Assembly: GCA_048881705.1 (NCBI GenBank)
Contig: JBHLSH010000068.1
Coordinates: 1-22,131, forward strand
Length of the DNA stretch: 22,131 nt
From: Candidatus Heimdallarchaeota archaeon
GTDB lineage: Archaea; Asgardarchaeota; Heimdallarchaeia; Hodarchaeales; Hodarchaeaceae
Direction of reading: 5' to 3'
Shown here: piece by piece, positions 1 through 21,600 of the stretch
How the letters are laid out: each line of letters begins with the position of its first letter
Position numbering within the stretch: the first letter of the stretch is position 1
The notes under the pieces: generated by a model
Seen by the model: only the letters and a program-made list of their open reading frames with translations
Told to the model about the DNA's origin: nothing
Databases searched by the model: none
Made by a program: the position numbers and the translations under genes

Positions 1-1917
1 AGCGAAACGGGATTGCACCACCTAGTGTGGGAAATTGTGGACAATTCTGTGGACGAAGCCATGGCTGGCTATTGTACACGTATTGTGGTCATTGTAGGAC
101 AGACTGAGGGAGGATTAGAGAGTGTCACTGTTCAGGACAACGGACGGGGCATTCCCACTGATAATCATCCCGATTATGATATTTCGTCTCTTGAGTTGGT
201 GACTACTAGGCTGCATTCTGGAGGGAAATTCGGGGAAGAAGCTTACAAAGTTAGTGGGGGATTGCATGGTGTTGGAATAGCGGTAGTAAATGCGTTGTCT
301 AGCTGGATGCAGGTTAAAGTAAAGAGAGACGGCAGGATTCTGATGCAGGAATATGTGAAGGGTGAAACAATCTCTCATGGTCTAATTGAGGTGGAAGAAG
401 ACTGGGAAGAAGAAACAGGAACCAGAATTAGCTTTATTCCCGACCCCGATATCTTTGAAACAACCCATTTCACCACCCAACAAATTAGGAGTAGATTAAG
501 GGAACTCGCATTCTTGAATAAAGGACTTGAAATTTTATTAATTGACAATCGACGCTATCTTAGTGATTTGGAGGGAGCTAAACCAGCAGAGCGAGATCAT
601 GCTGATTCCGAACCAGACTCTAACTCTGAAAAGGCTCTTTCTGAATGGCGATATTACTACGAGGGGGGAATCAGAGCTTATGTCGAACAACTTGCGCCAC
701 AGAAGGTACATGAAGATATACCATACTTTGATGAAACTATTGAAACTACACAAGTCGAAGTTGCCTTAGCATATGATCGCTCCGAACGTGATCTCGTCTA
801 CACATTCACTAATAATATAAATACCAAGCACGGCGGAACCCACCTATCAGGTTTTAAGGCAGGATTGACCCGGGCGATTAATGCATATGTTCAGAAGAAC
901 GAGCAGTTGATAAGGAATGCACGGCTCAAGAAGGAACTTAGAGATAAAAGATCGATCTTTAGCGGAAATGACGTAAGGGAAGGTTTAGTCGCGGTCGTTT
1001 CGGTGAAGGTTATTAATCCTCAATTCGAAGGTCAAACCAAAAGTAAACTTGGAAATTCAGAAGTAAAAGGCGTGGTCGAACGTGGGACATATGAGAACAT
1101 CCTACGATTCCTCGATGAGCATCCGGTCGATGGAAGAGAAATTATTCAGAAATGTGAGGAAGCAGCCTCGATTCGGATGAAATATCGCCAGCTTCGTGAG
1201 GCAATCAAGAAGACTCAAGCGAAAGGCACCGGAAAGCTCATAGATTGTTCAGAAACGGATCCTATGAGGCGCGAGCTTTTTCTCGTGGAGGGTGATTCTG
1301 CTGGAGGTAGTGCAATAGAGGGCCGCTTTAGTGAATTTCAGGCAATTTTACCGCTTCGAGGAAAGGTTATAAATGTCGAAAAGGCGCGATTGGAGAAGGC
1401 AATGAAAAACAAAGAAATTCTTGAAATCATAAGGGCTATCGGAGCGGGTTACAAGGAGAATTTCCAGATTGAAAATGTACGCTACCATAAAATTGTCTTA
1501 CTGATGGATGCTGACGTTGATGGGCATCATATTGTGTGTCTGCTGTTAACCTTCTTTTTTCGATATATGCCCGAACTGATTGACGAAGGCTACCTTTATA
1601 TTGCGCAGCCTCCGCTCTACAGAGTCAAAAAGGGCAACCAAGAGACCTATGTCTTGTCTGACCAAGAAAAAGATGAAATCCAACAGCAATGGGGAGGTAA
1701 GACTGAAGTTAGTCGGTTTAAAGGATTGGGAGAAATGAATCCTCTTCAATTGCGAGAAACCGTTTTGGATCCTGCGAACAGGATTCTCCTCCAAGTCACA
1801 CGAGACAATCTGATTGAAGCTGAACAGATGTTCGTGACGCTTATGGGACTTGAAGTTTCGCCCCGACGTAAATTTATAACAAGTCACGCCCTCGAAGTTG
1901 AGAGTTTGGATATATAG
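1..1917 (+). CDS. gyrB: DNA gyrase subunit B (5'-partial; frame is open from base 1, true start lies upstream of the window)
   Basis: Frame reads SETGLHHLVWEIVDNSVDEA (GHKL N-box), DNGRGIP, LHSGGKF...SGGLHGVG and GTRISF. TOPRIM motifs ELFLVEGDSAGGSA, LPLRGK and DADVDG are present, then FKGLGEMNP and a C-terminal LDI typical of GyrB. The TTG at 13 is an internal Leu. Directly upstream of a gyrA that has a GyrA-box. Confidence 0.97.
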   Translation, partial: SETGLHHLVWEIVDNSVDEAMAGYCTRIVVIVGQTEGGLESVTVQDNGRGIPTDNHPDYDISSLELVTTRLHSGGKFGEEAYKVSGGLHGVGIAVVNALSSWMQVKVKRDGRILMQEYVKGETISHGLIEVEEDWEEETGTRISFIPDPDIFETTHFTTQQIRSRLRELAFLNKGLEILLIDNRRYLSDLEGAKPAERDHADSEPDSNSEKALSEWRYYYEGGIRAYVEQLAPQKVHEDIPYFDETIETTQVEVALAYDRSERDLVYTFTNNINTKHGGTHLSGFKAGLTRAINAYVQKNEQLIRNARLKKELRDKRSIFSGNDVREGLVAVVSVKVINPQFEGQTKSKLGNSEVKGVVERGTYENILRFLDEHPVDGREIIQKCEEAASIRMKYRQLREAIKKTQAKGTGKLIDCSETDPMRRELFLVEGDSAGGSAIEGRFSEFQAILPLRGKVINVEKARLEKAMKNKEILEIIRAIGAGYKENFQIENVRYHKIVLLMDADVDGHHIVCLLLTFFFRYMPELIDEGYLYIAQPPLYRVKKGNQETYVLSDQEKDEIQQQWGGKTEVSRFKGLGEMNPLQLRETVLDPANRILLQVTRDNLIEAEQMFVTLMGLEVSPRRKFITSHALEVESLDI

Positions 1918-1923
1918 ACCGCC

Positions 1924-1928
1924 AGGAG
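1924..1928 (+). promoter_or_regulatory. Shine-Dalgarno (AGGAG) for gyrA
   Basis: AGGAG 10 nt upstream of ATG 1939, within the 21-nt gyrB-gyrA gap. Confidence 0.75.
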
Positions 1929-1938
1929 ATAAATTGAG

Positions 1939-4422
1939 ATGAGTTCCAATGTTAAAGTGGTCCCAATTGAACAAACAATGTCCAGGAGTTATCTTGAATA
2001 TTCGATGTCAGTTATAACATCGCGTGCCTTGCCGCATGTTAGGGACGGATTAAAACCAGTTCATCGACGGATTCTATGGGCAGCGCATAATCTTGGATTA
2101 ACCCATAATCGGCCACCGCGAAAATGTGCTCGTATCTCGGGGGAAGTTCTTGGAAAATATCACCCTCATGGGGATGCAGCCGTTTACGACGCTCTAGTAC
2201 GGATGGCTCAGCCTTTTTCGCTTCGATATCCATTGATTCAGGGTCAGGGAAACTTCGGAAGCATGGATGGACAGCCCGCCGCCGCCCAACGTTATACAGA
2301 GGCCAGAATGGAGGATATTACCGAGGAAATGCTCCAAGACATCGGCAAAGAGACAGTGGACTTTGTTGATAACTTTGATGGATTGGAAAAGGAACCTGTT
2401 ATTCTACCTACGCGGATTCCGAACTTATTGATAAACGGGGTTATGGGAATTGCGGTGGGGATGGCAACAACCATGCCTCCTCATAATTTGGGCGAAGTAA
2501 TCGATGGGGTAATGGCTACAATCAACGATCCGGATATTACCATTGACCAACTTATGGAATATATCCCCGGGCCAGATTATCCAACCGGAGGAGTGATTCA
2601 TGGAACTTCAGGGATTAAAAGGGCGTACCATAAAGGGCAGGGAACCATAATACTGAGAGCACGCTACCATACAGAGGAAAAAAAGGGAAAAACTCGAATC
2701 ATTATTACCGAAGTGCCTTATCTCGTAAAACGGCAGGATACAATTGATAACAGAGGTTTGGTTGATATAATTCTAAGAGAAAAAGAATTAGGAAAATTGG
2801 CCGATGTAGGGAGTGTCAGAAACGAATCTAGTATTATAAACGGCACTAAAATTGTCATTACTTTAAAAAGAAACGCTAATCTCGATATTGTCTTGAATCG
2901 ACTTTTCAAATACACTCCAATGCAGACCTCTTTCTCTATCCGTAACATGGTGCTCGTAGATGAATTGGTAGGAGAAACAACAAGATATCGACCCAAACTA
3001 CTAAACTTGAAGGGATTAATCACCGAATTCATCAACCACCGGTTCCAAATAGTCGAACGAAGAACACAATACGATCTCCGCAAGGCACGAGAAAGAGCCC
3101 ATATCTTAGAGGGACGTAAAATAGTGGTGGCGAACCTAGACGAAATAATCGCCCTGATCCGCGCCTCTGAATCTGGTCCACATGCCCAAGAATCATTGAA
3201 AGAGAAATTTTCGCTTTCTGAAATACAGGCCAAAGATATTTTGGCCTTACCGCTTCGTAGTTTAACCCGTTTTGACCAAGAAAAGATAATACGAGAGTAT
3301 GATGAAACTTTAAGGCAAATAAAAGAATATGAGTCAATTCTTGAAAATAAAGACCGAATCTATGAAATCATCGTTGAGGAACTGAAGGAGATCAAGAAAA
3401 AGCACGGGGATCCGCGTCGAACGCTAATCCGCTCGGAATCGCTGGACTGGTCTGAGAAAACCGAAGAAGACTTTATAACCAAAGAAGATATAGTAATAAC
3501 GTTAACAAGCAAAGGTTATATCAAATCTATACCTGCGGAAACATATAAAGCTCAGCATCGGGGAGGTAAGGGTATCAAGGCTATGGAAATCGCCAAGGAT
3601 GATTATTTGAAAGAAATGATCGTATGTTCAACCCATGATACGCTCCTTTTTCTGACCGTAAAGGGCCTGGTCTACACGAAACGAGGTTTTCAGATTCCAA
3701 TCTCCAAACAACGAGTAACCAAAGGAGTGAATATCGCTAACGTACTAAAACTAGAACGTGATGATGAGATTAGAACAATAATCCCTGTTTCAGAATTCAA
3801 TGATGGCCACTTCCTTATTACTGCAACCAAAATGGGAATCATCAAAAAAACCCCTTTGAAGGATTATGAACGTATAAGGTCAACGGGAATTATTGCTCAA
3901 CGTCTTCGAGATAACGACGTCATTATAGGGGCCAAAGTAACCGATGGATCGAGAGGTATAATTCTTGCAACGTTGAAAGGCAAGGCGATCCGTTTTCCAG
4001 AGGACGAGATACGTGTTGTGAAGAGAAGTAGCATTGGGGTTCTTGGAATTCGCCTAAATCAAGGCGACTACGTGGTCGATTTGGCTTTGGTCCATCCTGG
4101 TAAAACCCTCCTAACTGTGACAGAAAACGGCTATGGCAAGCGCTCGGAGTTTAAACATTATAGAATAACAAAAAGGAATGGCAAGGGGGTCATCAATATG
4201 AAAACAACAAAGAGAAATGGAGACGTAATAGCGGTACGGAGCGTTGCTGAAGATGATTATCTCTTACTGGTTGCGAATGATGGTAAATTGATCCAAATTG
4301 AAATCTCAAGTATCCGAGTCATTGGGAGAGCAACCGCAGGCGTCACCTTGATGCGAGTAAAACGTGAGGAAGGAGTAAAGATTTCCTCTATTGCCATTTT
4401 ATCCTCAGAGACGAACGACTAG
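1939..4422 (+). CDS. gyrA: DNA gyrase subunit A (827 aa)
   Basis: RALPHVRDGLKPVHRR, GKYHPHGD, GQGNFGS, catalytic Tyr in AAAQRYTEAR (Tyr119, 2293-2295) and GIAVGMAT. GyrA-box QHRGGKG at 3553-3573 and six recognisable beta-pinwheel blades in the CTD, so gyrase rather than ParC. Confidence 0.97.
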   Translation: MSSNVKVVPIEQTMSRSYLEYSMSVITSRALPHVRDGLKPVHRRILWAAHNLGLTHNRPPRKCARISGEVLGKYHPHGDAAVYDALVRMAQPFSLRYPLIQGQGNFGSMDGQPAAAQRYTEARMEDITEEMLQDIGKETVDFVDNFDGLEKEPVILPTRIPNLLINGVMGIAVGMATTMPPHNLGEVIDGVMATINDPDITIDQLMEYIPGPDYPTGGVIHGTSGIKRAYHKGQGTIILRARYHTEEKKGKTRIIITEVPYLVKRQDTIDNRGLVDIILREKELGKLADVGSVRNESSIINGTKIVITLKRNANLDIVLNRLFKYTPMQTSFSIRNMVLVDELVGETTRYRPKLLNLKGLITEFINHRFQIVERRTQYDLRKARERAHILEGRKIVVANLDEIIALIRASESGPHAQESLKEKFSLSEIQAKDILALPLRSLTRFDQEKIIREYDETLRQIKEYESILENKDRIYEIIVEELKEIKKKHGDPRRTLIRSESLDWSEKTEEDFITKEDIVITLTSKGYIKSIPAETYKAQHRGGKGIKAMEIAKDDYLKEMIVCSTHDTLLFLTVKGLVYTKRGFQIPISKQRVTKGVNIANVLKLERDDEIRTIIPVSEFNDGHFLITATKMGIIKKTPLKDYERIRSTGIIAQRLRDNDVIIGAKVTDGSRGIILATLKGKAIRFPEDEIRVVKRSSIGVLGIRLNQGDYVVDLALVHPGKTLLTVTENGYGKRSEFKHYRITKRNGKGVINMKTTKRNGDVIAVRSVAEDDYLLLVANDGKLIQIEISSIRVIGRATAGVTLMRVKREEGVKISSIAILSSETND

Positions 4423-4427
4423 GTGGA
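4421..4427 (+). promoter_or_regulatory. Shine-Dalgarno (AGGTGGA) for top6B, overlapping the gyrA stop codon
   Basis: TAGGTGGA spans gyrA stop 4420-4422 and lies 11 nt upstream of ATG 4439. Supports 4439 rather than TTG 4391 as the start. Confidence 0.65.
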
Positions 4428-4438
4428 ATGGATACAAA

Positions 4439-7400
4439 ATGACTAAAGCCACTAAATCCGCAAAAACCCAGCGTCCTAAGAGTACTTCTGATTCAAAGGT
4501 CGCACAGGAGAAAGTGGTAAAACGTTCCGCTGCGGACTTCTTTCAGGATAATAAGGCGATCGCTGGCTTCGATAACACAATGCGTGTTGTTTTTACTAGT
4601 ATCCGGGAACTGGTCGAGAATGGGCTGGACGCCGCGGAACGCGTTGGGCATCTACCGGAGATCAGAGTGATAATCCAACGGCTCTCACGGGATGAAATCG
4701 CAAAGCTATTGAATATAACTCAATTTGATTCTTCAGACAAGATTGACTTTCTACGTTTAACCGTAAGAGACAACGGATCAGGAATCCAATCTGAATTTGT
4801 ACCACCACTTTTCGGACGCGTTTTAACTGGTAGCAACTACGGTGCTCGTCAGTCTCGCGGACGATTTGGATTAGGTGCCAAGATGGTTCTTTTGAACGCT
4901 ATGTCCTCAGTCGATCTTCCATTGGTTATTAAGAGTAAGCATCTAAACGAGGACTTTACAAGTTACCATGAACTTATGATTAATCTTGCAGAAAATGAAC
5001 CTATTATCATTAACAGACGTGAGGTCCCCCAAGGGACGACGGAGGCAATTCCAAACTCTGGAACCGAGGTTAGTGTAACATTCACAGGGGCATGGGGTCT
5101 TGCTGCTCGCTATGTGTATGAATATTTCTCCCAATTAGCACTGATTACTCCTTATGCTTCCTTTTACATACAATATCCAGATAGTGATGTTCCAGTCGAG
5201 ATGGAACGAGTGGTAGAAGAAATGCCTCCGTATCCTCAGATTGCAAAGGTGCACCCTTGGGGAACTGATATAACTCAGTTCAAGCGAGAACTTGCCGTAA
5301 CACGAGTTTCGACTATGGAACAGTTTCTTCAGGAGCATTTCCAAGGCATCGGCGCAAAAACGGCTAAGGATTTCCTAGAGTTCGTGGGAATTCAAGCAGA
5401 TAAATCCCCCGATAAGTTGGAGGCAAGCGAGATCCGGCGTATCGTCCATGAGGGATTTGTGATGCCCGATTCAGATCCAAAGAAACGACGTACGCAGAAA
5501 TATTTTCCATTTAAACGTCCAAGTGGTGATTCTCTTGCTCCCCTGGGAGAAAACCTATTGGCAAAAGGAATTGAAAAAGAGCTAACGCCTCAGTTCGTGA
5601 GGGCGGCTTCCGGGGACGTCTCTGCGTATTCTGGTCATCCTTTCGTCATCGAGGCTGCTCTGGCATATGGAGGGCCAAACCTCTCGGGTGAGATAGGAAG
5701 CCCGAGGATCTATCGGTTTGCCAATCGGATACCGTTATTGTTCGGCGCAGGAAATGATATTATCACGAAATGCGTCCAAAAAATGAATTGGAAGAATTAC
5801 AAAATTTCAATTAATAAATCACCTATTGCCATCGTAGTTTCCGTAGTTTCGTCAAAAATACCATTCCCAGAAACTAGTAAGGAGTATATTGCCGATGTGG
5901 ATGAACTACGCGAGGAAATAAATCGAGTTCTCCGAAAATTGGCACGGGGACTGAGTCAGCATTTAGGCCGGGCTGAGAGAGAACGTCGTGAAAAACAGCG
6001 ACAATCTCGTTTTGAAAGCGCAGCTCCCAAAGTATTACGTAACTTGATGAATATTGTAAAAGACACCCCTTTCATCCTGGAATCACATGAAGAAGTTGCA
6101 AAACTTGAAAAAGCTCTGGCATCGGCAGTTCCCAGGCTTGTTCGTCGAAAATATCCTCCTAGTCCCGCCATTTCCAGCATTGGGGAATGGCTCCCCACTG
6201 AAACCTACGGAACTTTGGTAGAGAACGATTTTCAAACGATATTTCAGTTTTTACGGGCATCTAACGTGGAATTAAGCAAGATCACAGGCTTTGGTGAGGA
6301 TCGTATCGATGATATAAAGCGAAGAACGGTTAACGATCAAGAACGTTCAAAACAGGCCCCCCTTATGCGGGAATTTGAGATTTTTAACAAAAATATCGAA
6401 GATGATTTCAGCAAATATCGTGACATGCTTCGAATACATAAAGCATTCAATAAGCGTTGGATTGTATCGTCTCTTGATTTATTTGCAACCCCAGTTTCCC
6501 AATTAAGGTATATAGAAGGATTTCCAGAGAAATTAATCTATGATTGTAAAAGTAAAGCTGTTGAAATTCAACTAAAACACAGTTCCAGCGAAACTATTGC
6601 CATGGAGAACGCTGAATGGATGACCGATAACCTTCTCAAAAATTTTAGAAAGGCAAAAATCGATACTTTATTTGATTATATAATCGGATTTCCTGAAAAA
6701 TTGGCCCAGATACCGTCATTAAACCGTCGACTCATCGAATGGGCTAAGGACGAGATCAAGGGAGGGATTAAGGCGGGGTACATAGATCCTGAGAGCGTCA
6801 TTGGAGCGGCTTCTTTTGATTGGATGGATTATAAGGTTACTCCTCGTCTTCGTGGTCGAAAAATATCAAAGATTAAAGAGTTTCTTCAAACACCTTCTGA
6901 AACATTAGCAGAGTTACCTGAACTAGCTGAGAATCTGATTTTGCGATCAAAACAACTTTTCAAAGATAAGCTGGAAGATTTCAATGACCCTGACTCTCTT
7001 ATGGCTATTCCTGGAATTTCTGAATCCATGCAATCTGATTTGACGCGCTTAGAGATCCGTGGATTAGTTGATTTCCTTTTAAAGGGGGAGAATGAACTTC
7101 ATATTCTTAGAGGATTCACAAATCAACTCATTAACATGAAACTAGACGAGATCTATGAAGAGATCATCCAAAATCATGAAGCCTTTCCCATAAAAAACGC
7201 TTTATGGCTGGATCCTGACTTAGAATCTCAACTTAAGAGTTTCGGGATCAATTATGTTTACGATTTTGTTAAAACTGCTTCCTCCGAGCTTGAAAAGATC
7301 AAAGGAATGGATCCCCACATTTTAAGGACAATAAAAAGTGTTTATGGAACTCCTATACCGTTTTTTACCCCAGATGAAATGATATCATTAGAATCCAAGA

Positions 7401-10400
7401 AAATTTTCTGTTTAGAAGAACTTTATACGGCCATAAATAATCAACTTCTCCCGTCTGGGGCCTTGGGTACCAAGGCAAAGGACTTGCTGGACATCCTTTC
7501 TCAACCAATTTGCTTCTTACCTGTTTCAGGCAAATATTACTTATTATTTCATAATCTCGGAGTATCTAGAATTTTCGACCTGCTTATTTGGAATGATGCG
7601 GACCTACACAAAACCACGAAGGTTTCATACCAGGTCATTGATCAGATCAAGAGTACATTAAGTTTGGATCAGATAAGGGAGTTGATTGAAGAAAAATCAA
7701 TACCAATATCTGCATTGGCTGGGAATCTAAAGGGTAAGGAATGGACGTCTCTACTGGAATCAGGTTCAGGCGTACAGGCTCTCTATTATGCACTTCCCTA
7801 TTCAAATAGAGAACTGGGTGAACTTAATCTCACAGACAAGATGAGAAAACAGTTAGCTCGTCTTTTTAGAACACCTGTGACAAATTTACCGCAGATAAAA
7901 TCGAAATGGGTCTCACGTCTCCATTCAAATGGGATCAGCACCTTTATTGAACTAATTAGTTGGCCCCGCGAGGAATTGGTAAGGATCTTAGGGCGAGAGC
8001 GCAGTTTCGTTGATAATCTTTTTTCAGAGTTTCCTCCTTTCAGATCCGGAATGCCTCTAATTAGCTTAGGTGTCTTTTCAGCTACTGAAATGAAAACATT
8101 AAGAGATTCAGGATTTGAAACTGTCGAAGACGTTTATTTTGGGTTTAAGAAAGAACTCTTTAGTATAATGGGAGTTAAATGGAAAAAAATCGAACGATAC
8201 CAGCGCCGCCTTGAGACACCAATTGCGATGCTTCAGCTGGCAACAACGGCAGAGGGGTCGAAAATCCGAATCTCTCATGCGGGAATAGAGAGATTGGCGA
8301 CGAATGCGATCGATCAAATCATCAAACTTGTATACTGGGATAACCCGCAATTAAAAACCATTTTAAAAATGTCTGATGAGCGGGTACAAGAATTAAAAAG
8401 ATCCATAGCAATCAAGGAAGAGGGAATGCCATTGGGTAGAGTGAGTGGATTTACTCGAAAAGTTGCAGCAACTTTGACGGGGTATGGCATTGAAACGGTA
8501 GAAGATCTATATTTTAGCGCATCTGAAGATATGTTGGATGAAGAAGATGACCTTCAATGGGATGTGGTTAAGAAGGCAATGGAAGCTTTGGATCTTCCCA
8601 TTTCATACCTTACTGGAGTGATTCCAGATGATTACCTTGAGAAATTAATTGGAAAACGCATAGATACCATTATTCGATTTCTGATAACGTCTCCCGAGGA
8701 GCTCTCCTCTGTACTCGGAACTCCAATTGATAATATCGAAAATTTCCAGCAAAAAATCAACCTTATTAATCTCCGGGAATCCGCTGAAACGTCCATTTCG
8801 ATTTTAGACGGATTAAAAAGAAAGGATATTGCAACATTCGCGAATGAGGGAATTTTAACCGTTTTTGACTTCTTAACCAGTCCAGATGAACAGATATCAA
8901 GCGTTTTGGCCATTGATGTCAAGAAAGTGGAATCAATGAAAAAAGACATACACTTTTCAAGCATAGAGACCATAAAGGAAGAAAAAATGATACCATTGTC
9001 ATCAATAGCTATTTTTGATAGAAAAACGGTTAAAAAACTAGCACGCCTTGGAATAGAGAGCCTTTCTGATCTCTATTATGTTGCAACTTCAAAGAATTTG
9101 GAAGAGAGTCCAGTTGAATGGCAGGAGATTCTTGATGCCCGCATTGTGTTAGATATGCCACTGATAGCGAGTTCGGAGGTATCTCACGAAGAAATTGAAA
9201 TTCTTCGTAAAGCAAAGATCGTTCGAATTTTGGATTTAATGATGGATACTACCGAAACATTGGAAAAGCGAACAAAGCTCTCCAGTGATCGCATCGAAGC
9301 GATTAAGAAATCAATCAACTTTAATGAAATCCTTTCCCTTATTAAAAGCCTTTCTTCCCTAAAGCTTGATTTTCCTCCTGATTACAAGAGAAAAATTCAG
9401 ACTCTAGACCTTCAGACCGTTTACGATTTATTAGCACATCCTGATCCTGAATTCTATTTGGGCAAACTTAACGATCGAGCATATCGAATAGATTCCACAA
9501 ATTGGGAATCTTTATTCTCAGTATTGTCTATCCCCATTTCGTTAATTTTGGGTTTGGATCCTCCGACAATCAAATTATTAAATAGAAAACAGATTCGTAC
9601 TATGAGAGACGCACTTGTTGCGTCCGAGGCAAGGCTAGAGGGTGTTGAGGGTATTGAACCAACCGAATTTATTTCCGATCTAAAAGCCTTGAGTTTTTCT
9701 GAAATATTTCAGTTCAAACAGATACCTATGGTCTTTATCCCGAACTTACCCACCGAGTTCATTTTTCCCCTGATCGATAATAAGATAACTAGGGTAGATC
9801 ACTTATTGGATGCTTCTAATAGTGATGTAGCAGCAGCTTTGGAAACCTCAAGCACCCGGATCCGTAAAATACTTTCCAACTTGAGTATGTCTACAACCAT
9901 CAAATCAATGGAAGACAATTCGACTCCTTTAGATCAGTTTTCCTCCCTGGTTTCGAAATCTACCTTACAAAAACTTTCTAATATTGGGATTAGCACCATT
10001 CAGGAATTATATTTGCACGATCGTGAACAACTCAGCTTTAACGGACTCTCGGAATTATTTGCTTTTTTAGATCTTCCGATTAATCGTTTATCAACTGATA
10101 TACCGACTGGGGATCTCAGGAAGCTGTCACAATACGGAATAAATACCCTATTCCGATGGTTCTTCATTCCGAATCCCAATCTTTCAAAAATACTAGGAAT
10201 GGAAATCAGTGAGATAGCGGAAATCAAAAAAGAGTTCGACCCAGAGACGGCTTCATCTGCCAAATTAAGCGAAACTGATGTACCCCTAAAGGCCATTGTT
10301 GAGACGGGGTACATTGATTTCGATGAACTGGAGAAACTTGGAATCCGAACACTTGAGGATATGCTATTTGCGAATTTAGAAACTTTAGAATGCTCTGACA

Positions 10401-11407
10401 AGCTTAAGAAGCGTCTCAATAATCTCATTGATGCAGCAAACTCTTCATTAGCATATTATTCTTTATTGGATCCAACTTACGTAATGCCACTTGCGTTTAA
10501 CGGTATCACGTCGGTCAAACTATTGATTCAGAGTGAATTTTCACAGATTCGGGATAATATGGGTATTCTTGATGAAAATGAATATAATACAGCCCGTTCA
10601 TCGGTGAACCTTGTTAACATTCTGACCCATAAGAAGACTGAATCGGAATTTCGCGTAAAACTGTCTTCACTAAGGGCCTTTACCCCGAAACAACTAGAAG
10701 TGGTTCAAAAATTGGGAATAGACAACGTGGTTGACTTATATTTTCTTCTAGATCCAGATAAATCCCCTAAATCAGTAGCAAGTTCTGTGGATAGCGTCAA
10801 AAGGGTCTTAGAGAAGCCTTTTGCATCGTTAACTAGTATTAGTGCACCGAACTTAGCATCAAAGGTGGCCTTGTTATTTAACGCAGGAATTACTTCGATT
10901 ATTGAATTCCTTTTTTGGCCTAAATCTGATCTCGCTGAGCTCTTAGAAATTAAGCGATATGAACTAAACAGGTTTAGAAAGATTAATCTCGGTGATTTAA
11001 GAAGGAAAAAGCTCGGTACCCCTCTCGAGAACTTCGTGAGAGTCCCTGAAGAGTATATCGAACCTTTAAACGAATATGGCATTGATTTCATCGAAGATCT
11101 TTACTTCTACCTTAAACGTTATCCAACATTAATACCTGGGGATATGATTCCAGGAAAAATACTAAATGAATGGATCAAGGATCTTGATTCGCCGATTGTG
11201 CGACTAGCGGGTTTGCCTATTCCGGTTACTCAGGAATTAATCACAAAGGGAGTAAATCGAATCATTGATTTCTTATATTGGCCTGTGGATGAACTAAAAC
11301 AGGTCTATGGCTTATCAGAAACTAAAATCAAATCAATTAAGAAAAATGTCCGTTTAAGACGAAAAACAGATGTATTGGGACAACTAGACAAGTTTATGGG
11401 AGAATAG
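4439..11407 (+). CDS. top6B: DNA topoisomerase VI subunit B with a giant C-terminal (HhH)2-repeat extension (~2,322 aa)
   Basis: The first ~570 aa show SAADFF...AGFDN, RELVENGLDA (N-box), DNGSGI, QSRGRFGLGAK, GTEV, an H2TH (FQGIGAKTAKDFL), transducer RFANRIPLLF, the WKxY motif (WKNY), SKEYIA lysine and a stalk helix EEINRVLRKLAR...ERERREK. The ORF then continues without a stop for ~1,750 aa of helical repeats. Immediately upstream of top6A. Confidence 0.93.
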   Translation: MTKATKSAKTQRPKSTSDSKVAQEKVVKRSAADFFQDNKAIAGFDNTMRVVFTSIRELVENGLDAAERVGHLPEIRVIIQRLSRDEIAKLLNITQFDSSDKIDFLRLTVRDNGSGIQSEFVPPLFGRVLTGSNYGARQSRGRFGLGAKMVLLNAMSSVDLPLVIKSKHLNEDFTSYHELMINLAENEPIIINRREVPQGTTEAIPNSGTEVSVTFTGAWGLAARYVYEYFSQLALITPYASFYIQYPDSDVPVEMERVVEEMPPYPQIAKVHPWGTDITQFKRELAVTRVSTMEQFLQEHFQGIGAKTAKDFLEFVGIQADKSPDKLEASEIRRIVHEGFVMPDSDPKKRRTQKYFPFKRPSGDSLAPLGENLLAKGIEKELTPQFVRAASGDVSAYSGHPFVIEAALAYGGPNLSGEIGSPRIYRFANRIPLLFGAGNDIITKCVQKMNWKNYKISINKSPIAIVVSVVSSKIPFPETSKEYIADVDELREEINRVLRKLARGLSQHLGRAERERREKQRQSRFESAAPKVLRNLMNIVKDTPFILESHEEVAKLEKALASAVPRLVRRKYPPSPAISSIGEWLPTETYGTLVENDFQTIFQFLRASNVELSKITGFGEDRIDDIKRRTVNDQERSKQAPLMREFEIFNKNIEDDFSKYRDMLRIHKAFNKRWIVSSLDLFATPVSQLRYIEGFPEKLIYDCKSKAVEIQLKHSSSETIAMENAEWMTDNLLKNFRKAKIDTLFDYIIGFPEKLAQIPSLNRRLIEWAKDEIKGGIKAGYIDPESVIGAASFDWMDYKVTPRLRGRKISKIKEFLQTPSETLAELPELAENLILRSKQLFKDKLEDFNDPDSLMAIPGISESMQSDLTRLEIRGLVDFLLKGENELHILRGFTNQLINMKLDEIYEEIIQNHEAFPIKNALWLDPDLESQLKSFGINYVYDFVKTASSELEKIKGMDPHILRTIKSVYGTPIPFFTPDEMISLESKKIFCLEELYTAINNQLLPSGALGTKAKDLLDILSQPICFLPVSGKYYLLFHNLGVSRIFDLLIWNDADLHKTTKVSYQVIDQIKSTLSLDQIRELIEEKSIPISALAGNLKGKEWTSLLESGSGVQALYYALPYSNRELGELNLTDKMRKQLARLFRTPVTNLPQIKSKWVSRLHSNGISTFIELISWPREELVRILGRERSFVDNLFSEFPPFRSGMPLISLGVFSATEMKTLRDSGFETVEDVYFGFKKELFSIMGVKWKKIERYQRRLETPIAMLQLATTAEGSKIRISHAGIERLATNAIDQIIKLVYWDNPQLKTILKMSDERVQELKRSIAIKEEGMPLGRVSGFTRKVAATLTGYGIETVEDLYFSASEDMLDEEDDLQWDVVKKAMEALDLPISYLTGVIPDDYLEKLIGKRIDTIIRFLITSPEELSSVLGTPIDNIENFQQKINLINLRESAETSISILDGLKRKDIATFANEGILTVFDFLTSPDEQISSVLAIDVKKVESMKKDIHFSSIETIKEEKMIPLSSIAIFDRKTVKKLARLGIESLSDLYYVATSKNLEESPVEWQEILDARIVLDMPLIASSEVSHEEIEILRKAKIVRILDLMMDTTETLEKRTKLSSDRIEAIKKSINFNEILSLIKSLSSLKLDFPPDYKRKIQTLDLQTVYDLLAHPDPEFYLGKLNDRAYRIDSTNWESLFSVLSIPISLILGLDPPTIKLLNRKQIRTMRDALVASEARLEGVEGIEPTEFISDLKALSFSEIFQFKQIPMVFIPNLPTEFIFPLIDNKITRVDHLLDASNSDVAAALETSSTRIRKILSNLSMSTTIKSMEDNSTPLDQFSSLVSKSTLQKLSNIGISTIQELYLHDREQLSFNGLSELFAFLDLPINRLSTDIPTGDLRKLSQYGINTLFRWFFIPNPNLSKILGMEISEIAEIKKEFDPETASSAKLSETDVPLKAIVETGYIDFDELEKLGIRTLEDMLFANLETLECSDKLKKRLNNLIDAANSSLAYYSLLDPTYVMPLAFNGITSVKLLIQSEFSQIRDNMGILDENEYNTARSSVNLVNILTHKKTESEFRVKLSSLRAFTPKQLEVVQKLGIDNVVDLYFLLDPDKSPKSVASSVDSVKRVLEKPFASLTSISAPNLASKVALLFNAGITSIIEFLFWPKSDLAELLEIKRYELNRFRKINLGDLRRKKLGTPLENFVRVPEEYIEPLNEYGIDFIEDLYFYLKRYPTLIPGDMIPGKILNEWIKDLDSPIVRLAGLPIPVTQELITKGVNRIIDFLYWPVDELKQVYGLSETKIKSIKKNVRLRRKTDVLGQLDKFMGE
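6164..11350 (+). repeat. Protein-level tandem array of ~28 (HhH)2/HHH_5-like units of ~50-65 aa within Top6B
   Basis: Recurrent pattern P[IL]xxLxx(h)xxxxxxxLxxxG[IF]xT[IV]xD[LF][LY]...eLxx[IL]xG[hs]xxxIxxIk. Examples: PAISSIGEWLPTETYGTLVENDFQTIFQFLRASNVELSKITGFGEDRIDDIK; PIKNALWLDPDLESQLKSFGINYVYDFVKTASSELEKIKGMDPHILRTIK; PLGRVSGFTRKVAATLTGYGIETVEDLYF; PIVRLAGLPIPVTQELITKGVNRIIDFLYWPVDELKQVYGLSETKIKSIK. Count is by eye (+/-2). No nucleotide-level identity between units is evident. Confidence 0.85.
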
Positions 11408-11412
11408 GAGGT
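11406..11412 (+). promoter_or_regulatory. Shine-Dalgarno (AGGAGGT) for top6A, overlapping the top6B stop codon
   Basis: TAGGAGGT includes top6B stop 11405-11407 and lies 7 nt before ATG 11420, so the N-terminal extension of Top6A is very likely translated. Confidence 0.85.
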
Positions 11413-11419
11413 TTATCTT

Positions 11420-11674
11420 ATGGCTACAGTCGTTATAGAAGATGCAACAGGTCTTTCAAAGAAGGTTATCCAAAGCGAAATAGAGGAAGATAGTTCAGTC
11501 CGAATCATCCGGACTCTGGTGAAAAAGGAACTCGATTTAGGGAAACAACCTTTTCAGGTGTTTTTCGGGAAAAGGCAAGACAAGAACTTTAAGGAGCTTA
11601 ATGAAAGAACTATAGATGGATTTAAGGAGCTTAAAAAGGATAATATAGACCTAGTATTGCGTATCCGAAGAAAA
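11420..11674 (+). other. Putative ubiquitin-like (beta-grasp) domain at the N-terminus of Top6A
   Basis: MATVVIEDATGLSKKVIQSEIEEDSSVRIIRTLVKKELDLGKQPFQVFFGKR...ERTIDGF...IDLVLRIRRK aligns by eye with ubiquitin [67 protein letters not shown]. Shared elements: TG turn, KxIxxExE strand, amphipathic helix, F-GK, RT, LVLRxR. No terminal GG. Confidence 0.65.
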
Positions 11675-12820
11675 ATCGACCTAACCAAACTGCAAAGCCT
11701 TCATAAAGTTGTTTCAGATCAGGATATTGATCTTCCAGTAAGCATATTGAAGGTCGATAATGTTGAGCCATCAGAAACAAAACGCAGGTTACAAGATGTA
11801 GCTAGAGAGTTTCTTGAGGAAATTGCTGTCAGTCCGGACGGAGCCGCTTTTCGTATTCCAGCGCGTAGTTCCGAAAATGTAGGTTATGATGATAGCTCAA
11901 AAATGGTTCTTTTGGGGAGTCATGTTGTTGATCGTCAGTTTCGTCATTTAAGTAGCGTTCAAGGAATTGTTCAGCTTACAGGCCTTATGCGGTACATTGA
12001 TGAGATTCTTGACGCAGAAAAACATGCCACGAAGCGCCATTTATTCTATAGGGATGTGAATCTATTCGGGAACCAACGAGTCTCTGATACCCTGATAGAG
12101 GATTTAGGGGCCCTTCTTCGAGTGTCTCGTAATTCTCTAAACGTAATTGCTTCTGCCAAAGGCAAAATTATAGGCAGATTGTCCTTTACAGAAGGTGGAG
12201 ATTTCATAGATTGTACCCAGGGTTTGGGGGGGCATGCTATTACGCCTATGCTGGATCAAATAGATAATTTTGAAAGCGACGCGGAATTCGTTTTGGTAAT
12301 TGAGAAAGACGCAGTATTTCAAGATCTGGCTGAGGATAAGTTCTTTAACTATATACCTTGTATTCTGGTTACGGCCTCAGGTCAACCTGATATGGCTACA
12401 CGTCTTTTTCTCAAACGATTGTATGAGGAGGTGAAACTTCCTATTTTGGGATTTCTGGATGCCGATCCATATGGATTGGACATCCTTCGGGTATATAGCA
12501 TCGGTTCAAAGGCCTTAAGTTTTGAATCCGTTGAGATGGCGATTCCAGATATTCGTTGGTTAGGTTTACTTCCCTCAGATATAAAGGAATATCAGATCCC
12601 TAAGTCGGTGCTTATCAAAATGACAGATAATGACATTAAGCGAGCTGATGATCTTCTTAAGGAGGATTTCGTTCGATCACGGCCTGAGTGGGAGAGGCAA
12701 ATCCAAATTATGAAGGATACGGGTCACAAGGCCGAAATTCAGGCCCTGGCGTCTAAAGATTGGCGGTTTATGACGAATACCTATCTCCCGAGCAAGCTAG
12801 ACTCTGGTAGTTGGGTTTGA
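11420..12820 (+). CDS. top6A: DNA topoisomerase VI subunit A (Spo11 homolog) with an N-terminal ubiquitin-like extension (466 aa)
   Basis: Winged-helix ATKRHLFYRD with putative catalytic Tyr210 (12047-12049), LNVIASAKG, TOPRIM FVLVIEKDAVF, ASGQPDMATRLFL, DADPYG, IRWLGLLPSD, KAEIQAL and C-terminal YLPSKL..GSWV. About 100 aa longer at the N-terminus than typical Top6A. Confidence 0.96.
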   Translation: MATVVIEDATGLSKKVIQSEIEEDSSVRIIRTLVKKELDLGKQPFQVFFGKRQDKNFKELNERTIDGFKELKKDNIDLVLRIRRKIDLTKLQSLHKVVSDQDIDLPVSILKVDNVEPSETKRRLQDVAREFLEEIAVSPDGAAFRIPARSSENVGYDDSSKMVLLGSHVVDRQFRHLSSVQGIVQLTGLMRYIDEILDAEKHATKRHLFYRDVNLFGNQRVSDTLIEDLGALLRVSRNSLNVIASAKGKIIGRLSFTEGGDFIDCTQGLGGHAITPMLDQIDNFESDAEFVLVIEKDAVFQDLAEDKFFNYIPCILVTASGQPDMATRLFLKRLYEEVKLPILGFLDADPYGLDILRVYSIGSKALSFESVEMAIPDIRWLGLLPSDIKEYQIPKSVLIKMTDNDIKRADDLLKEDFVRSRPEWERQIQIMKDTGHKAEIQALASKDWRFMTNTYLPSKLDSGSWV

Positions 12821-12860: not shown

Positions 12861-13538
12861 ATGATGCTGTCGATGTCGTTCTTCATCGTTCCAGGCTTTG
12901 AAAACGTCGATCATGGGGAAGTACGCCGAATATTAGATCTTGTTCAGAGCGTCATTGCTTTCTCACAGGGTCAATCTCTGGATAAAAAAGCCATTGGTAG
13001 GATCACTAAAAAATTGGGGGCTCGTATGTTTGGCAGCGAGTTATTTCCTGGGGGGTCCAGTGTCCTTTTTGCTTGGCGTTTCCCAATCGAAAAACTCGGG
13101 GCTGTTGTGGTAAAACCTTACTATAGCGGCACAATTACCCGCCTTCTAATCCATTATTTTACCCAGATTGACTACTTCCAAACGTACAAGGATAAAGAAT
13201 TCCTGTCTCCGAATGGGAAGGTAATCTTACTCAATATTCCTCAGGTGGTTGGCTTCGCGAAGATCGAAACCTTTAATCGTGAATTTCCAACTTTATTGGT
13301 GGAGGAAGCGGTGGGAGAATCTATTCAAACAAATCCGACCTTGATTCGCCAAGTAAGCCAGATTGCGCGTCAAATGGCTTCGGAAGGCCTCATTTTCGAC
13401 TTTTATCCTTCAAATTGGAAGCTTCATGGAAAAAAACTAACCTACGTGGATCTGCTGAGCTCAAATAAACTAAAAAATTTGAAAAAAAGAATTACTCAAC
13501 TATTGGAAAAGATTGAATCTCCTGCGGCCAGAATGTGA
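12861..13538 (+). CDS. Hypothetical protein with a minimal protein-kinase-like (atypical RIO/Bud32/APH-like) fold, ~225 aa
   Basis: Motifs in kinase order: Gly-rich loop LFPGGSSVLF, beta3 lysine AVVVK85, IPQVVGF strand, hinge LLVEEAVGES, helix then GLIFD180FYPSN185 (DxxxxN catalytic loop) and YVD197L (DFG-position Asp). Very short C-lobe. Start may be ATG 12861, 12864 or 12873. Confidence 0.6.
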   Translation: MMLSMSFFIVPGFENVDHGEVRRILDLVQSVIAFSQGQSLDKKAIGRITKKLGARMFGSELFPGGSSVLFAWRFPIEKLGAVVVKPYYSGTITRLLIHYFTQIDYFQTYKDKEFLSPNGKVILLNIPQVVGFAKIETFNREFPTLLVEEAVGESIQTNPTLIRQVSQIARQMASEGLIFDFYPSNWKLHGKKLTYVDLLSSNKLKNLKKRITQLLEKIESPAARM

Positions 13539-13553
13539 CTTCCAATGGTTGGA

Positions 13554-14105
13554 TTATAACTCCCCGTCACGGTAATAGACCGCACGTCTTATTGCTGAAG
13601 CAAAGGCAGTTCCGACTCCCCTTCCCGTGACCGCAGAGGTGGGAAAATATGGCGCATTTAATTTATCCGCGAACCTCTGTCCGATCTCATCCTGGAATTC
13701 TCTGTTTTTGATGTCAATTTTATTTGCGCAGAGTACCGCTGGCACAGTTCCAAGCGTTTTTTTAACTTCTTTCACCCAATGGGGAAGTGAAATAAGGGTA
13801 GATTCTCGTGTGACATCCGCCACGTAGATAACCGAGTGTGCTCCTTCATAGAATATGGGACGAACCTTATCAAAGGTTGGTTGGCCAGAAAGATCCCAAA
13901 AAATCGCTGTTGTATGGCCTTCAGTCTTCTCAGGGGCTCTGATCTTTAGGAAAGAGATATCGGCGCCAGCTGTTGGCTTATGCTCAAAATCTCTTTTGGT
14001 AAAGACGGATACAAGCTGAGTTTTCCCTACCAAGGGATCCCCCACTATTACGATCTTGTATTGAGCATGATGTGGGATTTCAAAGAGAATTTCTTCTTGG
14101 GACAT
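13554..14105 (-). CDS. Rab-like small GTPase (Ras superfamily), ~183 aa
   Basis: G1 GDPLVGKT, G2 PTAGAD, G3 WDLSGQ, FYEGA (Rab YYRGA-like), G4 NKID, G5 TSA; no C-terminal Cys. I chose ATG 14105 because GGAG lies 9 nt upstream; the alternative start is 14120. Confidence 0.93.
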   Translation of the reverse strand: MSQEEILFEIPHHAQYKIVIVGDPLVGKTQLVSVFTKRDFEHKPTAGADISFLKIRAPEKTEGHTTAIFWDLSGQPTFDKVRPIFYEGAHSVIYVADVTRESTLISLPHWVKEVKKTLGTVPAVLCANKIDIKNREFQDEIGQRFADKLNAPYFPTSAVTGRGVGTAFASAIRRAVYYRDGEL

Positions 14106-14250
14106 GATAAATAACTCCATTCAATTGATTTTGAAAGGAAAGATCGAAGATCGGATTATTGTTGAAATTCTTGTCACGAAAGCTCCGTATATGTCCGGTT
14201 ATAAGAGCTATAAAGAACCCTTTGGAGATTCCTCTTTAAAACTTTCTTTA

Positions 14251-20130: not shown

Positions 20131-20436
20131 TTAGGTCGGGAAAATCTAATTATGGTGTTACCTTGAAAACACCAGTTCTGTCTTCGAAGCAGAATCGACC
20201 AGAAATCATTGTTTCATAGACCTTAATTTTGAGTTTTTGGACATTAAATTGGGGTAACAAGGATATAAAAATTGGCGGTTTTCTCGTTTAGACTACGATC
20301 TTAGAATTCCTTTAATTGCATGAAATTTTCGAGATTGTGATGGGATTTCTTATTTAACCTTCCGCATTAAAAGCCAAATGACAGGCTTATACCAAAAAAC
20401 CTGTTGTCGTTCGTATAGGAATTTTTGGAAGGAATA

Positions 20437-21600
20437 ATGCCACTTTCACTAGATTTACCCAAAACGGATCTGGAGTTTCTGAAACTAACTGTCTTGGAAA
20501 GTACACAAAGACGAAGTCAAACCTTATCTAAGATTCAACAGAGCATAGAGGACATTAAAGAAATTCTTGAGAGGGATGCAGACTATAATAGGGATGTACG
20601 GATACAAGAGTTGGAATCAAATCTTGTAGAAAATAAAATCAGCTTTTTTCGAGCCCAAACAGAACGAGAAATTAAGAATGCCATAATAGAATTTTTAGAT
20701 TTATCAAATGAGCGCAATGTTCTCATAGAACTAGCGGAGGATCTTTTGGTAGATGATGTTTACAGTATGCTTTCCTCCCAAAATATCGCTCCCGTGGTTT
20801 GCCATCCTTCAGTTTTAGATACAGAACCATTCAATGTGAAAACGGGCATTAAAAGATTGAATTATTTTCCACTCGAGGATGACAAGTTACGATACTTTTA
20901 CAGGAAAATCAGAGAAAAGTCACTTTACTCATCGACAGGTGTATCATCAGCTGATTTTTTGGCATTCGATACGGGCACTATTATTATAAGAGACCTGCAA
21001 CGTTGGCGAGGAATCTTAACAACAGCACCAGTAAAACATCTCGCTGTTGTAAATATAGACAAAGCAATGAAGTATCATTCTATCTTAGGTTTTCTGAATG
21101 CGATGAAAATCATCAATCCTCAATACCTGGATACCAATTTTCTGATTTCTAGCAGCCCTTCGAGGACAGGGGATATTGAACGAATACTTGTTTATGGTGC
21201 TCATGGACCTCTTTCAGTCGGAGTGATAGCGGTTGATAGCGAATTTCCTGACGTTCCTGGGAATAGATCCGATTTATATCCTTTAAGTCTGGTTTTAGAT
21301 GCCTTATTTCCTGAGCTCAAACACATCGCGAATTTTCTCGATGTCCCTACAATTAATCCCATTACAATGTGGAGATTTATAACCAATTCGAACGCTCAAA
21401 GTCATTGGGCGCTTGCGCACACAGTTTTAAACCGGGTTGAAAACTCGGATTTAGCCTTGCCTAGGAATATCATTAATGCTTACACTGCGATCAAATCTGA
21501 AGCGGCAAATATCGGTAATCTTGGTGCGGAAGAAACAGATCGTTTAGAAAAGGACCTGTATACGCTATTAACAAGTCTAGAAGTTACAAGGAAGGACTAA
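20437..21600 (+). CDS. LUD-domain (LutB/LutC, lactate utilisation-like) protein with a Cys-free C-terminal region, ~387 aa
   Basis: GVSSADFLAFDTGTI, APVKHLAVVNIDK and SSPSRTGDIERILVYGAHGP match the LUD motif set. ATG 20437 preceded by GAAGGA is preferred over TTG 20425. Only one Cys in the protein. Confidence 0.82.
   Translation: MPLSLDLPKTDLEFLKLTVLESTQRRSQTLSKIQQSIEDIKEILERDADYNRDVRIQELESNLVENKISFFRAQTEREIKNAIIEFLDLSNERNVLIELAEDLLVDDVYSMLSSQNIAPVVCHPSVLDTEPFNVKTGIKRLNYFPLEDDKLRYFYRKIREKSLYSSTGVSSADFLAFDTGTIIIRDLQRWRGILTTAPVKHLAVVNIDKAMKYHSILGFLNAMKIINPQYLDTNFLISSSPSRTGDIERILVYGAHGPLSVGVIAVDSEFPDVPGNRSDLYPLSLVLDALFPELKHIANFLDVPTINPITMWRFITNSNAQSHWALAHTVLNRVENSDLALPRNIINAYTAIKSEAANIGNLGAEETDRLEKDLYTLLTSLEVTRKD

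Follow-up and report, generated by a model that had tools for sequence, protein, structure and literature searches.

A giant DNA topoisomerase VI subunit B with a predicted arm of 28 double helix-hairpin-helix units in a Heimdall-group archaeon

The main type II topoisomerase of archaea is topoisomerase VI (Topo VI), from which the Spo11/Top6BL machinery that initiates meiotic recombination descends. The B subunit of Topo VI, Top6B, has so far been treated as a protein of 500-650 residues. Here we describe a top6B gene encoding 2,322 amino acids (aa) plus a stop codon (4439-11407) on contig JBHLSH010000068.1 of Candidatus Heimdallarchaeota archaeon (Hodarchaeales; assembly GCA_048881705.1), a member of the Heimdall group, the archaea most commonly positioned as neighbours of the eukaryotes. 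The window analysed (positions 1-22,131, forward strand) is the entire 22,131-base contig of a 3.96 Mb genome that is 91% complete, and a transducer-domain search of this genome identified the giant as its sole Top6B. The gene is a single uninterrupted open reading frame (ORF) with its ATG at 4439, its stop at 11405-11407 and a start (MTKA...) common to orthologs. The protein, about four times the normal size of a Top6B, consists of a GHKL-H2TH-transducer core (aa 1-~545), a hinge of ~40 aa, an arm of 28 units (aa 585-2304) that is three times longer than the enzyme core, and a C-terminal peptide.

The giant gene is part of a head-to-tail row of four topoisomerase genes, gyrB-gyrA-top6B-top6A, on the plus strand (1-12820), which is also the strand of all the features within these genes given below. 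The row opens with gyrB (1-1917), whose 5′ end is lost at the contig end and which matches Pfam DNA_gyraseB, Toprim, DNA_gyraseB_C and HATPase_c, and continues with gyrA (1939-4422; 827 aa), which combines a Pfam DNA_topoisoIV match (1e-149) with five DNA_gyraseA_C blades. Beyond the giant lies top6A (11420-12820; 466 aa), matching Pfam TP6A_N and TOP6A-Spo11_Toprim (3e-64). The gaps between the four genes measure 21, 16 and 12 nucleotides (nt), and Shine-Dalgarno-like motifs are found 11-15 nt 5′ of the top6B ATG (GGTGG) and between the top6B stop and the top6A start (GGAGG). Because of the common strand, the short gaps and these motifs, the genes of both type II topoisomerases look like one operon. 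The linkage is not general, since in a closed genome of the same class (G015) gyrA lies ~440 kb away from top6B.

A preliminary description of the window had read an intact Top6B core of ~570 aa running without a stop into an extension of ~1,730 aa, and the ORF bears this reading out. The NCBIfam Top6B equivalog PRK04184 matches aa 19-549 with 447 bits (cut-off 274), and a PDB sequence search aligned the core with Saccharolobus shibatae Top6B (2zbk_B, 3e-86 over aa 22-541) and with 2q2e_B (1e-67). The GHKL ATPase domain (~aa 28-230; 4520-5128) was placed by alignment to 2zbk_B/1mx0 and by Pfam HATPase_c (aa 55-150); its N-box (ELVENGLDA), G1 (DNGSGI) and G2 (GRFGLGAKM) motifs align to the same structures and are invariant in 25 orthologs. 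It is followed by an H2TH-like domain (~aa 265-338; 5231-5452), assigned from alignment to the H2TH region of 2zbk_B and a weak Pfam NFACT_N match over aa 265-338, and by the transducer (aa 361-521; 5519-6001), which was recovered over the full length (1-159) of Pfam Topo-VIb_trans (PF09239, 7e-52), in the 2zbk_B alignment and in the genome search. The transducer carries both WKNY (the WKxY motif) and the switch lysine in SKEYIA, each aligned to 2zbk_B.

The adjacent Top6A aligns with 2zbk_A from aa 119 on (1e-58), with the catalytic tyrosine in RHLFY, the glutamate in IEKD and the DxD motif in DADPYG at the aligned positions. Given these motifs and the full-length alignments to solved Top6B and Top6A, the core is judged from its sequence to be catalytically intact and co-encoded with an intact Top6A, and the A2B2 enzyme would be a working ATP-dependent type IIB topoisomerase. 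The first ~120 residues of Top6A have no family match in Pfam or NCBIfam and include ~100-110 extra N-terminal residues (11420-11770). Across the families defined below, Top6A proteins partnered with a giant B subunit measure 466-476 aa in f1 and f28, and canonical partners in the same genomes 382-390 aa; on these sequences the N-terminal extension tracks the presence of the arm.

Between core and arm lie the end of the transducer helix and the hinge (aa 522-584; 6002-6190), where the predicted local distance difference test (pLDDT) score falls to 33-54 over aa ~550-583. The last part of this segment holds a conserved motif, RR.YPPSP.ISSIGEW (aa 568-584; 6140-6190), in which R569, R570, P573, P574, S575, G582, E583 and W584 are invariant. 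Since an invariant proline-rich motif persists where the prediction is of low confidence, the hinge may be no passive linker but a site for binding or modification.

The arm (6191-11350; 1,720 aa) was delimited with AlphaFold2 (AF2) secondary structure, in-register alignment, hidden Markov models (HMMs), Foldseek and a unit profile. Two AF2 models, of aa 540-1458 (pLDDT 74.4, predicted TM-score (pTM) 0.48) and aa 1393-2322 (pLDDT 71.6, pTM 0.49), are both all-alpha and show a recurring four-helix unit, helix(9)-loop-helix(6)-helix(8)-loop-helix(10). This unit occurs 28 times, as counted from the first helices between aa 585 and 2322, and all 28 copies align in register. Each unit spans ~55-65 residues, in which AF2 packs two helix-hairpin-helix (HhH) motifs into one small all-alpha domain, and carries the signature L...G-I-x-T-h-x-D-L ... 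L..I.G-h. The ~28 tandem (HhH)2-like units of ~60 aa and the LxxxGIxTVxDL signature first read from the window are thereby confirmed. Units 1-10 start at aa 585, 649, 728, 799, 860, 924, 976, 1029, 1098 and 1153, units 11-19 at aa 1213, 1278, 1338, 1395, 1459, 1526, 1581, 1645 and 1706, and units 20-28 at aa 1770, 1838, 1888, 1958, 2010, 2081, 2137, 2202 and 2259, where a start at residue aa corresponds to nucleotide 4439 + 3(aa-1).

BLASTP of the giant against itself found no internal match at 1e-3; identity between units of one protein is ~20%, and HMMs were needed because the units are too diverged for BLASTP. An HMM trained on the protein recovered 24 units at an independent E-value below 0.01, and the four remaining gaps each hold one unit in the AF2 models. 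When the HMM was built from units 10-28 only, it scored the first nine units at 79 bits, with shuffled sequences reaching at most 4.9 bits (n=200); the reverse test gave 94 bits against at most 8.8 bits in shuffles. The repeat signal is not circular, because an HMM trained on one part of the arm scores the other part far above shuffles. A two-unit super-repeat was considered and rejected: adjacent units are the least alike (similarity 0.31 at lag 1, versus 0.47-0.56 for lags 2-6) and there is no clean period of two.

Comparisons with known folds placed the units among the double HhH domains. Summed over the whole protein, Pfam matches were strongest for RAD51D_N (81.5 bits, 5e-23), followed by HHH_5 (54 bits, 2e-14) and RNA_pol_A_CTD (29.5 bits), and summed matches to Y-family polymerase thumb regions in Pfam/NCBIfam were weak. 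Scanned singly, just three of the 28 units reached any Pfam HhH family at E<0.01, such that the repeated HhH-like fold proposed earlier stood in the Pfam and AF2 checks for the arm as a whole and was weak for units taken alone. A profile of all 28 units searched against the PDB matched the C-terminal domain (CTD) of the RNA polymerase alpha subunit (alpha-CTD; 1doq, 2.9e-4), the (HhH)2 domain of XPF (2bhn, 3.7e-3) and the N-terminal domain (NTD) of RAD51 (1b22, 7.3e-3), with further matches to RAD51D (2kz3), NusA AR (1u9l), Hef and Y-family thumb regions. Foldseek searches with the two ~920-residue arm models returned nothing at E<=0.001 among 350,542 chains, and ranks and local matches were used; the best local match was the RAD51 N-lobe (8xbw_L; probability 0.99, TM-score 0.67, root-mean-square deviation (rmsd) 2.2 Å over 56 columns). 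By profile and by model, each unit is thus assigned as a double HhH domain of the RAD51-NTD/alpha-CTD type.

A protein of this build could have been created by an assembler joining separate core and extension genes, or the reading frame could belong to a decaying pseudogene. One related metagenome contig (L084, 1369-8183) might be taken to point that way, as it carries the giant top6B between gyrA and top6A as three ORFs (611, 617 and 1,033 aa) with two frame changes; this split copy is either a sequencing error or a decaying or split copy. Against an artefact, the ORF in the window is uninterrupted, and at the DNA level neither tandem nor long direct repeats are present to mislead an assembler, which makes a repeat-collapse misassembly unlikely. 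Independently built Logan contigs from two likely source runs span 3900-7196 with 0 differences, and in a third sample a single contig of a ~92%-identical strain covers 3900-10467, where it differs by 505 substitutions and shows neither an indel nor a joint. The junction near 6150, flagged in the preliminary description as a place to check, is therefore crossed without indels by independent assembled contigs (contigs, not raw reads, were the material of these checks). The giant gene is also present in two closed genomes (G067 and G015) and in at least 25 full-length orthologs, on contigs of up to 646 kb. The fusion of core and arm is real and under selection, and the chance that it is an artefact is practically negligible.

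At least 25 full-length Hodarchaeales orthologs measure 2,296-2,330 aa and are 50-56% identical over the arm. An alignment of 25 of them has 2,348 columns, 26 more than the giant has residues, and its columns have an identity of 0.80 (core) and 0.56 (arm). Orthologs keep the residues specific to each unit, and the length of the arm is fixed within lineages. Since the units combine ~20% mutual identity with conservation between orthologs and fixed length, they are not interchangeable beads.

We next consider the distribution of such proteins, which the earlier reading of the window had suggested searching for among Asgard Top6B proteins longer than 1,000 aa. Searching 400 genomes of the phylum for the transducer domain revealed long Top6B ORFs throughout the class of the window; the eight arm-bearing families sampled are labelled f1-f7 and f28. 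Top6B measures ~2,312-2,346 aa in f1, the window's own genus, ~4,140-4,305 aa in f3 and f4, ~2,500-3,573 aa in f5, mostly ~2,200-3,590 aa in f6, ~1,110-1,120 aa in f7 and ~2,290 aa in f28, which belongs to another class. In each family the unit HMM trained on the window matches units along the entire extension, and across the Heimdall group arm-bearing Top6B proteins range from 1,110 to 4,341 aa. The giant architecture is therefore not peculiar to the source organism and is a clade-wide trait of the Heimdall group. An exhaustive HMMER search with aa 1140-2322 against 1.84 billion representative proteins yielded 38 matches, the longest of 4,341 aa. Because every one of the 38 is either a giant that has a Top6B core or a fragment of a giant, the unit family appears to be essentially confined to Top6B.

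To place the gain of the arm, core trees were obtained by quick searches with the SH-like approximate likelihood-ratio test (SH-aLRT), the second tree leaving out five very long Loki-type rows. The arm-bearing proteins form one clade (SH-aLRT 99-100), in which the short f7 form branches first; the nearest outsiders are a 547-aa Asgard protein and plant and algal Top6B, with weak support (80-81). Because the arm-bearing proteins form one clade, we read the sequences as pointing to a single gain of the arm, followed by growth from ~9 to 28 to ~55-60 units, where the numbers for the larger forms are estimates from length alone. A different kind of enlargement was seen in gyrase-bearing Loki-type families (L053-L060; G127, G134, G148, G279), whose Top6B proteins measure 1,013-1,249 aa, are 23-35% identical, sit on a branch of length 3.9 and have an inserted stretch interrupting their core match.

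Each of the eight arm-bearing families sampled has another type II enzyme besides the giant. In f1-f6 this is gyrase, encoded by 62 of 70 genomes, and no Top6B other than the giant occurs in these families. Gyrase was found in none of 12 genomes of f7 and one of five of f28, and these two families both have a canonical Top6B/Top6A pair in addition to the giant pair. One example is G307, a genome of another class that is 100% complete (C6:515382-528528): its canonical top6B-top6A (564 and 389 aa) lies immediately before the giant pair (2,293 and 473 aa), in the position held by gyrB-gyrA in the window. Arm-bearing Topo VI is thus never the only type II enzyme in this count, which covers related genomes and does not amount to a statistical test, and the constant coexistence suggests that it is a specialist. 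A strict link between arm and gyrase, as would follow from the hypothesis of Villain et al., was ruled out as a rule by the arms that f7 and f28 carry with little or no gyrase.

What the arm does was approached through its chemistry. One reading, in the spirit of the Topo V-like arm put forward in the preliminary description, is that most or all of the 28 modules bind duplex DNA, so that the arm would wrap or line the flanks of the G-segment or catch a distant T-segment and thereby raise affinity, processivity, salt tolerance or crossing preference. In its favour, every family matched by the unit profile is a nucleic-acid-binding (HhH)2 family, the RAD51 N-lobe noted above gives the best local match in structure, and chains of Topo V rank first of the 350,542 for both halves of the arm. 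In solved Topo VI structures (2ZBK/2Q2E) the transducer helix terminates against Top6A, close to the DNA gate, and by inference from them the arm, which begins where this helix ends, would emerge near the gate; among other type II enzymes, CTDs such as that of GyrA also handle DNA.

The composition of the arm argues in the other direction. It holds 226 K+R versus 256 D+E (net charge -30), single units range from -9 to +5, and arm bodies carry 0 to -3.3 charges per 100 aa in most lineages, the exception being the short f7 arm (+2.6). (HhH)2 domains touch the phosphates of DNA through hairpins that contain glycine. The hairpin-1 glycine is kept in 16 of the 28 units and the hairpin-2 glycine in 11, such that about half of these glycines are gone, and hairpin 2 has acidic residues in a third of cases; the loss of the hairpin glycine from many units and the acidity of several had both been noticed correctly at the outset. 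Columns conserved across the pool of 28 units and 25 orthologs describe a hydrophobic core and a linker proline, with one column mostly basic, and reveal no basic face shared among the units. The Topo V matches of Foldseek are moreover non-significant (E 0.11 and 0.023) with an rmsd of ~30 Å, and few units reach an HhH family alone. Because the arm is net acidic, its hairpin glycines are partly lost and its units share a hydrophobic core, its sequence profile resembles that of a structural module, and a Topo V-like polycationic DNA wrap is not favoured. Topo V stands as the top-ranked multi-domain analogue of the arm but not as a guide to its chemistry, and DNA binding by most or all modules is unlikely, though well short of negligible.

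It had also been proposed that the arm is a repair module, some HhH units having apurinic/apyrimidinic (AP)-lyase or deoxyribose-phosphate (dRP)-lyase activity, which would make the protein both a topoisomerase and a repair protein. This idea draws on analogy with Topo V, from general knowledge, and on the weak summed matches to Y-family thumb regions. Pfam scans of the whole protein and of its single units turned up nothing of lyase type, and the units are nearer to RAD51-NTD/alpha-CTD than to Topo V; nothing in the sequence supports the proposal, and we consider a repair function very improbable.

The last part of the protein differs in character from the arm body. In most lineages the final 80 residues are basic (+3 to +25), and the tails are strongly basic in the relatives of 3,500-4,300 aa. 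In the window, the sequence after the last unit (11351-11404) comprises RLRRK and a terminal peptide of the form G-x-L-D-x-[FY]-M (here GQLDKFM), identified as PCNA-interacting-protein (PIP)-box-like and by its conservation in orthologs. The consensus is RLRRK-x-D-V-x-G-x-L-D-x-[FY]-M, with G2314 and M2320 invariant and L2316 and Y/F2319 present in at least 90% of 25 orthologs. The PIP-box has the form Q-x-x-[LIM]-x-x-[FY]-[FYLM] and follows a basic or disordered stretch close to a terminus. Its positions 4, 7 and 8 are present and conserved in the tip (L2316, F/Y2319 and M2320), and position 1 is L/V. PIP-box clients of the same genome offer a direct comparison: Fen1 ends in QSLDQFF and RNase HII has KTLDELL near its end. 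The tip resembles such clients in lying at the extreme C-terminus after basic residues and in the core L-D-x-[FYL]-[FLM] (an aromatic-hydrophobic ending after L-D-x). They differ from the Hodarchaeales tip, whose position 1 is not Gln and whose predicted binding is weakly supported. In distant giants, K/S/T-rich tails contain QKSLNAF, QKSLNEY, QTSLDEY, QKTLDAML or QTTLDEI, which correspond to the canonical Q-x-[ST]-L-[DN]-x-[FYM].

Complex prediction for the last unit plus tail with the organism's own PCNA gave a score of 0.39, with the best control at 0.01; runs agreed in at least 45% of contacts and the partner pLDDT was at least 51. The support is weak: in calibration, 58 of 80 solved complexes attained the mark, as did 2 of 110 mismatched pairs, and at scores of 0.60 or under it was attained by only 7 of the 80 and by both mismatches. 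From the motif and the model, the tip peptide would dock the arm on a partner, most plausibly PCNA. The own PCNA (288 aa; L011 964-1830, minus strand, contig C24) has a C-terminus unusual for an archaeal PCNA, a tail of ~35 residues consisting almost wholly of Asp, Glu and Tyr, and open frames of its orthologs in the genus measure 287-312 aa.

The arm might instead be a protein scaffold that self-associates or recruits other proteins of the chromosome (histones, SMC-type complexes or repair factors, for example), with no direct contact to DNA or clamp. Such a role would suit the acidity of the arm, the conserved identity that every unit keeps and the ~100-aa N-terminal extra of Top6A found only in arm-bearing lineages. 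Relatives of the units (NusA AR, alpha-CTD, RAD51 NTD) also bind proteins, and 8xbw, among the matches, shows the RAD51 N-lobe on a histone H4 tail. Against a scaffold, the sole conserved short linear motif is the tip, which resembles a clamp-binding peptide, and the strongly basic tails of the largest relatives point to DNA contact there. We regard a pure scaffold as quite unlikely.

The explanation we favour, holding it at about an even chance, is that the A2B2 Topo VI is a specialist, most likely for the decatenation or segregation of replicated DNA, with general supercoil control left to the gyrase encoded just upstream. Its two arms would act mainly as long, semi-rigid elements for reaching and tethering, most modules being structural spacers, and a subset that keeps its glycines and is positively charged may still contact DNA. 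The C-terminal peptide would dock the tip of the arm on a partner, most plausibly PCNA, and docking on PCNA would keep the enzyme near newly replicated duplexes.

Several points weigh against this explanation. Its functional side rests on architecture and on co-occurrence, and the co-occurrence comes from related genomes without a statistical test. The tip motif of Hodarchaeales lacks the canonical Gln at PIP position 1, the PCNA complex score is weak on the tool's own calibration, and as PIP-PCNA complexes are solved structures, a prediction that passes the mark may reflect likeness only. RAD51 NTD, alpha-CTD, XPF/Hef HhH2 and the Dpo4 thumb all bind nucleic acid, and because these closest families do so and Topo V ranks first, binding of DNA along the whole arm is possible. 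In addition, 28 separately conserved folded modules would be odd for a mere spacer, and their surfaces (~56% identity) are probably functional. Finally, the AF2 models, with pTM values of 0.48-0.49, do not establish the rigidity of the arm or its surface electrostatics.

A bolder version of the specialist-decatenase explanation can be offered tentatively, and we consider it doubtful. Here the enzyme would be a decatenase anchored at the replisome by a tether of tens of nm, its tip held on the clamp, or on DNA through the basic tail in the largest relatives, and it would work beside a second, general type II enzyme. It would have arisen once, in an archaeal clade whose Top6B appears to adjoin the eukaryotic one, and might be a forerunner of the division of labour and chromatin tethering associated with the C-terminal regions of eukaryotic type II enzymes.

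The remainder of the window holds genes of other kinds. A 225-aa ORF (12861-13538, plus strand) begins 40 nt 3′ of top6A; searches of NCBIfam and the protein atlas gave no family match, the atlas yielding unnamed clusters, with small atypical kinase families (Phage_T7_kinase, Kinase-PolyVal) as weak leads. A 221-aa ORF occupies the same place after top6A in the related contig L084. Next comes a Ras/Roc-family small GTPase of 188 aa (13554-14120, minus strand; Ras 6.5e-31), and L084 again has a Ras/Roc gene in the same position; small GTPases of this type are eukaryote-like signature proteins of Asgard archaea. They are followed by a 635-aa acetyl-CoA hydrolase/transferase (N and C domains) fused to a C-terminal GNAT acetyltransferase domain (14438-16345, minus strand), by a 991-aa glycolate/D-lactate oxidase-like protein combining a flavin adenine dinucleotide (FAD)-linked oxidase, 4Fe-4S and two CCG cysteine-rich domains (16548-19523, plus strand), and by a LUD-domain protein (20425-21600, plus strand), the last two forming a lactate-utilisation-type cluster.

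To our knowledge, the giants would be among the largest topoisomerase subunits. The apparently single origin of the arm, its fixed length and the constant presence of a second type II enzyme point to an unrecognised division of labour in chromosome untangling, and the proteins offer a directly testable system for the function of such an arm.

Database records name these proteins "DNA topoisomerase VI subunit B", and full-text literature searches found no description of an HhH-armed Top6B, in agreement with the initial impression that the architecture had not been reported. Villain et al. 2022 (PMC9348778) found lineage-specific C-terminal extensions, of ~100 residues or modelled as a globular domain, on the Top6B of archaea that have gyrase, Asgard among them, and proposed a specialisation of Topo VI after the arrival of gyrase. 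These extensions share with the giant arm the position after the transducer and the idea of specialisation; the study describes no HhH train of 1,100-3,800 residues, and arms occur also in the gyrase-poor f7 and f28. That study is a partial precedent for the idea and not for the arm (PMC9348778). The portions of Allen et al. 2024 (PMC11302465) that discuss Top6B do not mention the arm, nor does the main text of a 2025 paper on the Asgard replisome (PMC12680538), in which Top6B is also discussed.

Compared with canonical Top6B (S. shibatae 2ZBK chain B, 530 aa; Methanosarcina mazei 2Q2E chain B, 621 aa), the giant shares the GHKL, H2TH and transducer domains, the N-box, G1, G2, WKxY and switch lysine, and an adjacent Top6A with catalytic Tyr and Toprim. 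It adds 1,780 residues past the transducer, made up of the hinge, the 28 units and the terminal peptide; the immunoglobulin (Ig)-like CTD of M. mazei Top6B is absent from it, and its Top6A partner has ~100 extra N-terminal residues. The giant is a genuine and conserved form of a known enzyme that has apparently not been described before. A single unit matches the RAD51/RadA NTD, RAD51D_N, alpha-CTD, XPF/Hef (HhH)2 and NusA AR in fold and signature, whereas these proteins have one or two copies and the giant has 28 in tandem, with about half of the hairpin glycines lost.

The only other topoisomerase known to us with a long tandem (HhH)2 array is Topo V of Methanopyrus kandleri, a type IC enzyme with 12 tandem (HhH)2 domains (2CSB, 5HM5, 8DF7/8DF9), in which the array is the DNA-binding, lyase-bearing region. 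Both proteins fuse such an array to a catalytic part, and the resemblance is one of architecture only: the classes differ (IC versus IIB), as do the unit numbers (12 versus 28), and the arm of the giant is net acidic with many degenerate hairpins. PDB searches with the giant core and with the unit profile gave no sequence match to Topo V, and no type IC catalytic domain was found in the giant, whose catalytic parts are type IIB. Topo V is thus the nearest solved array, with no demonstrable kinship, and the relationship is likely to be one of convergence, which would make the giant Top6B, alongside Topo V, another topoisomerase that has independently recruited an HhH train, here with a different chemistry.

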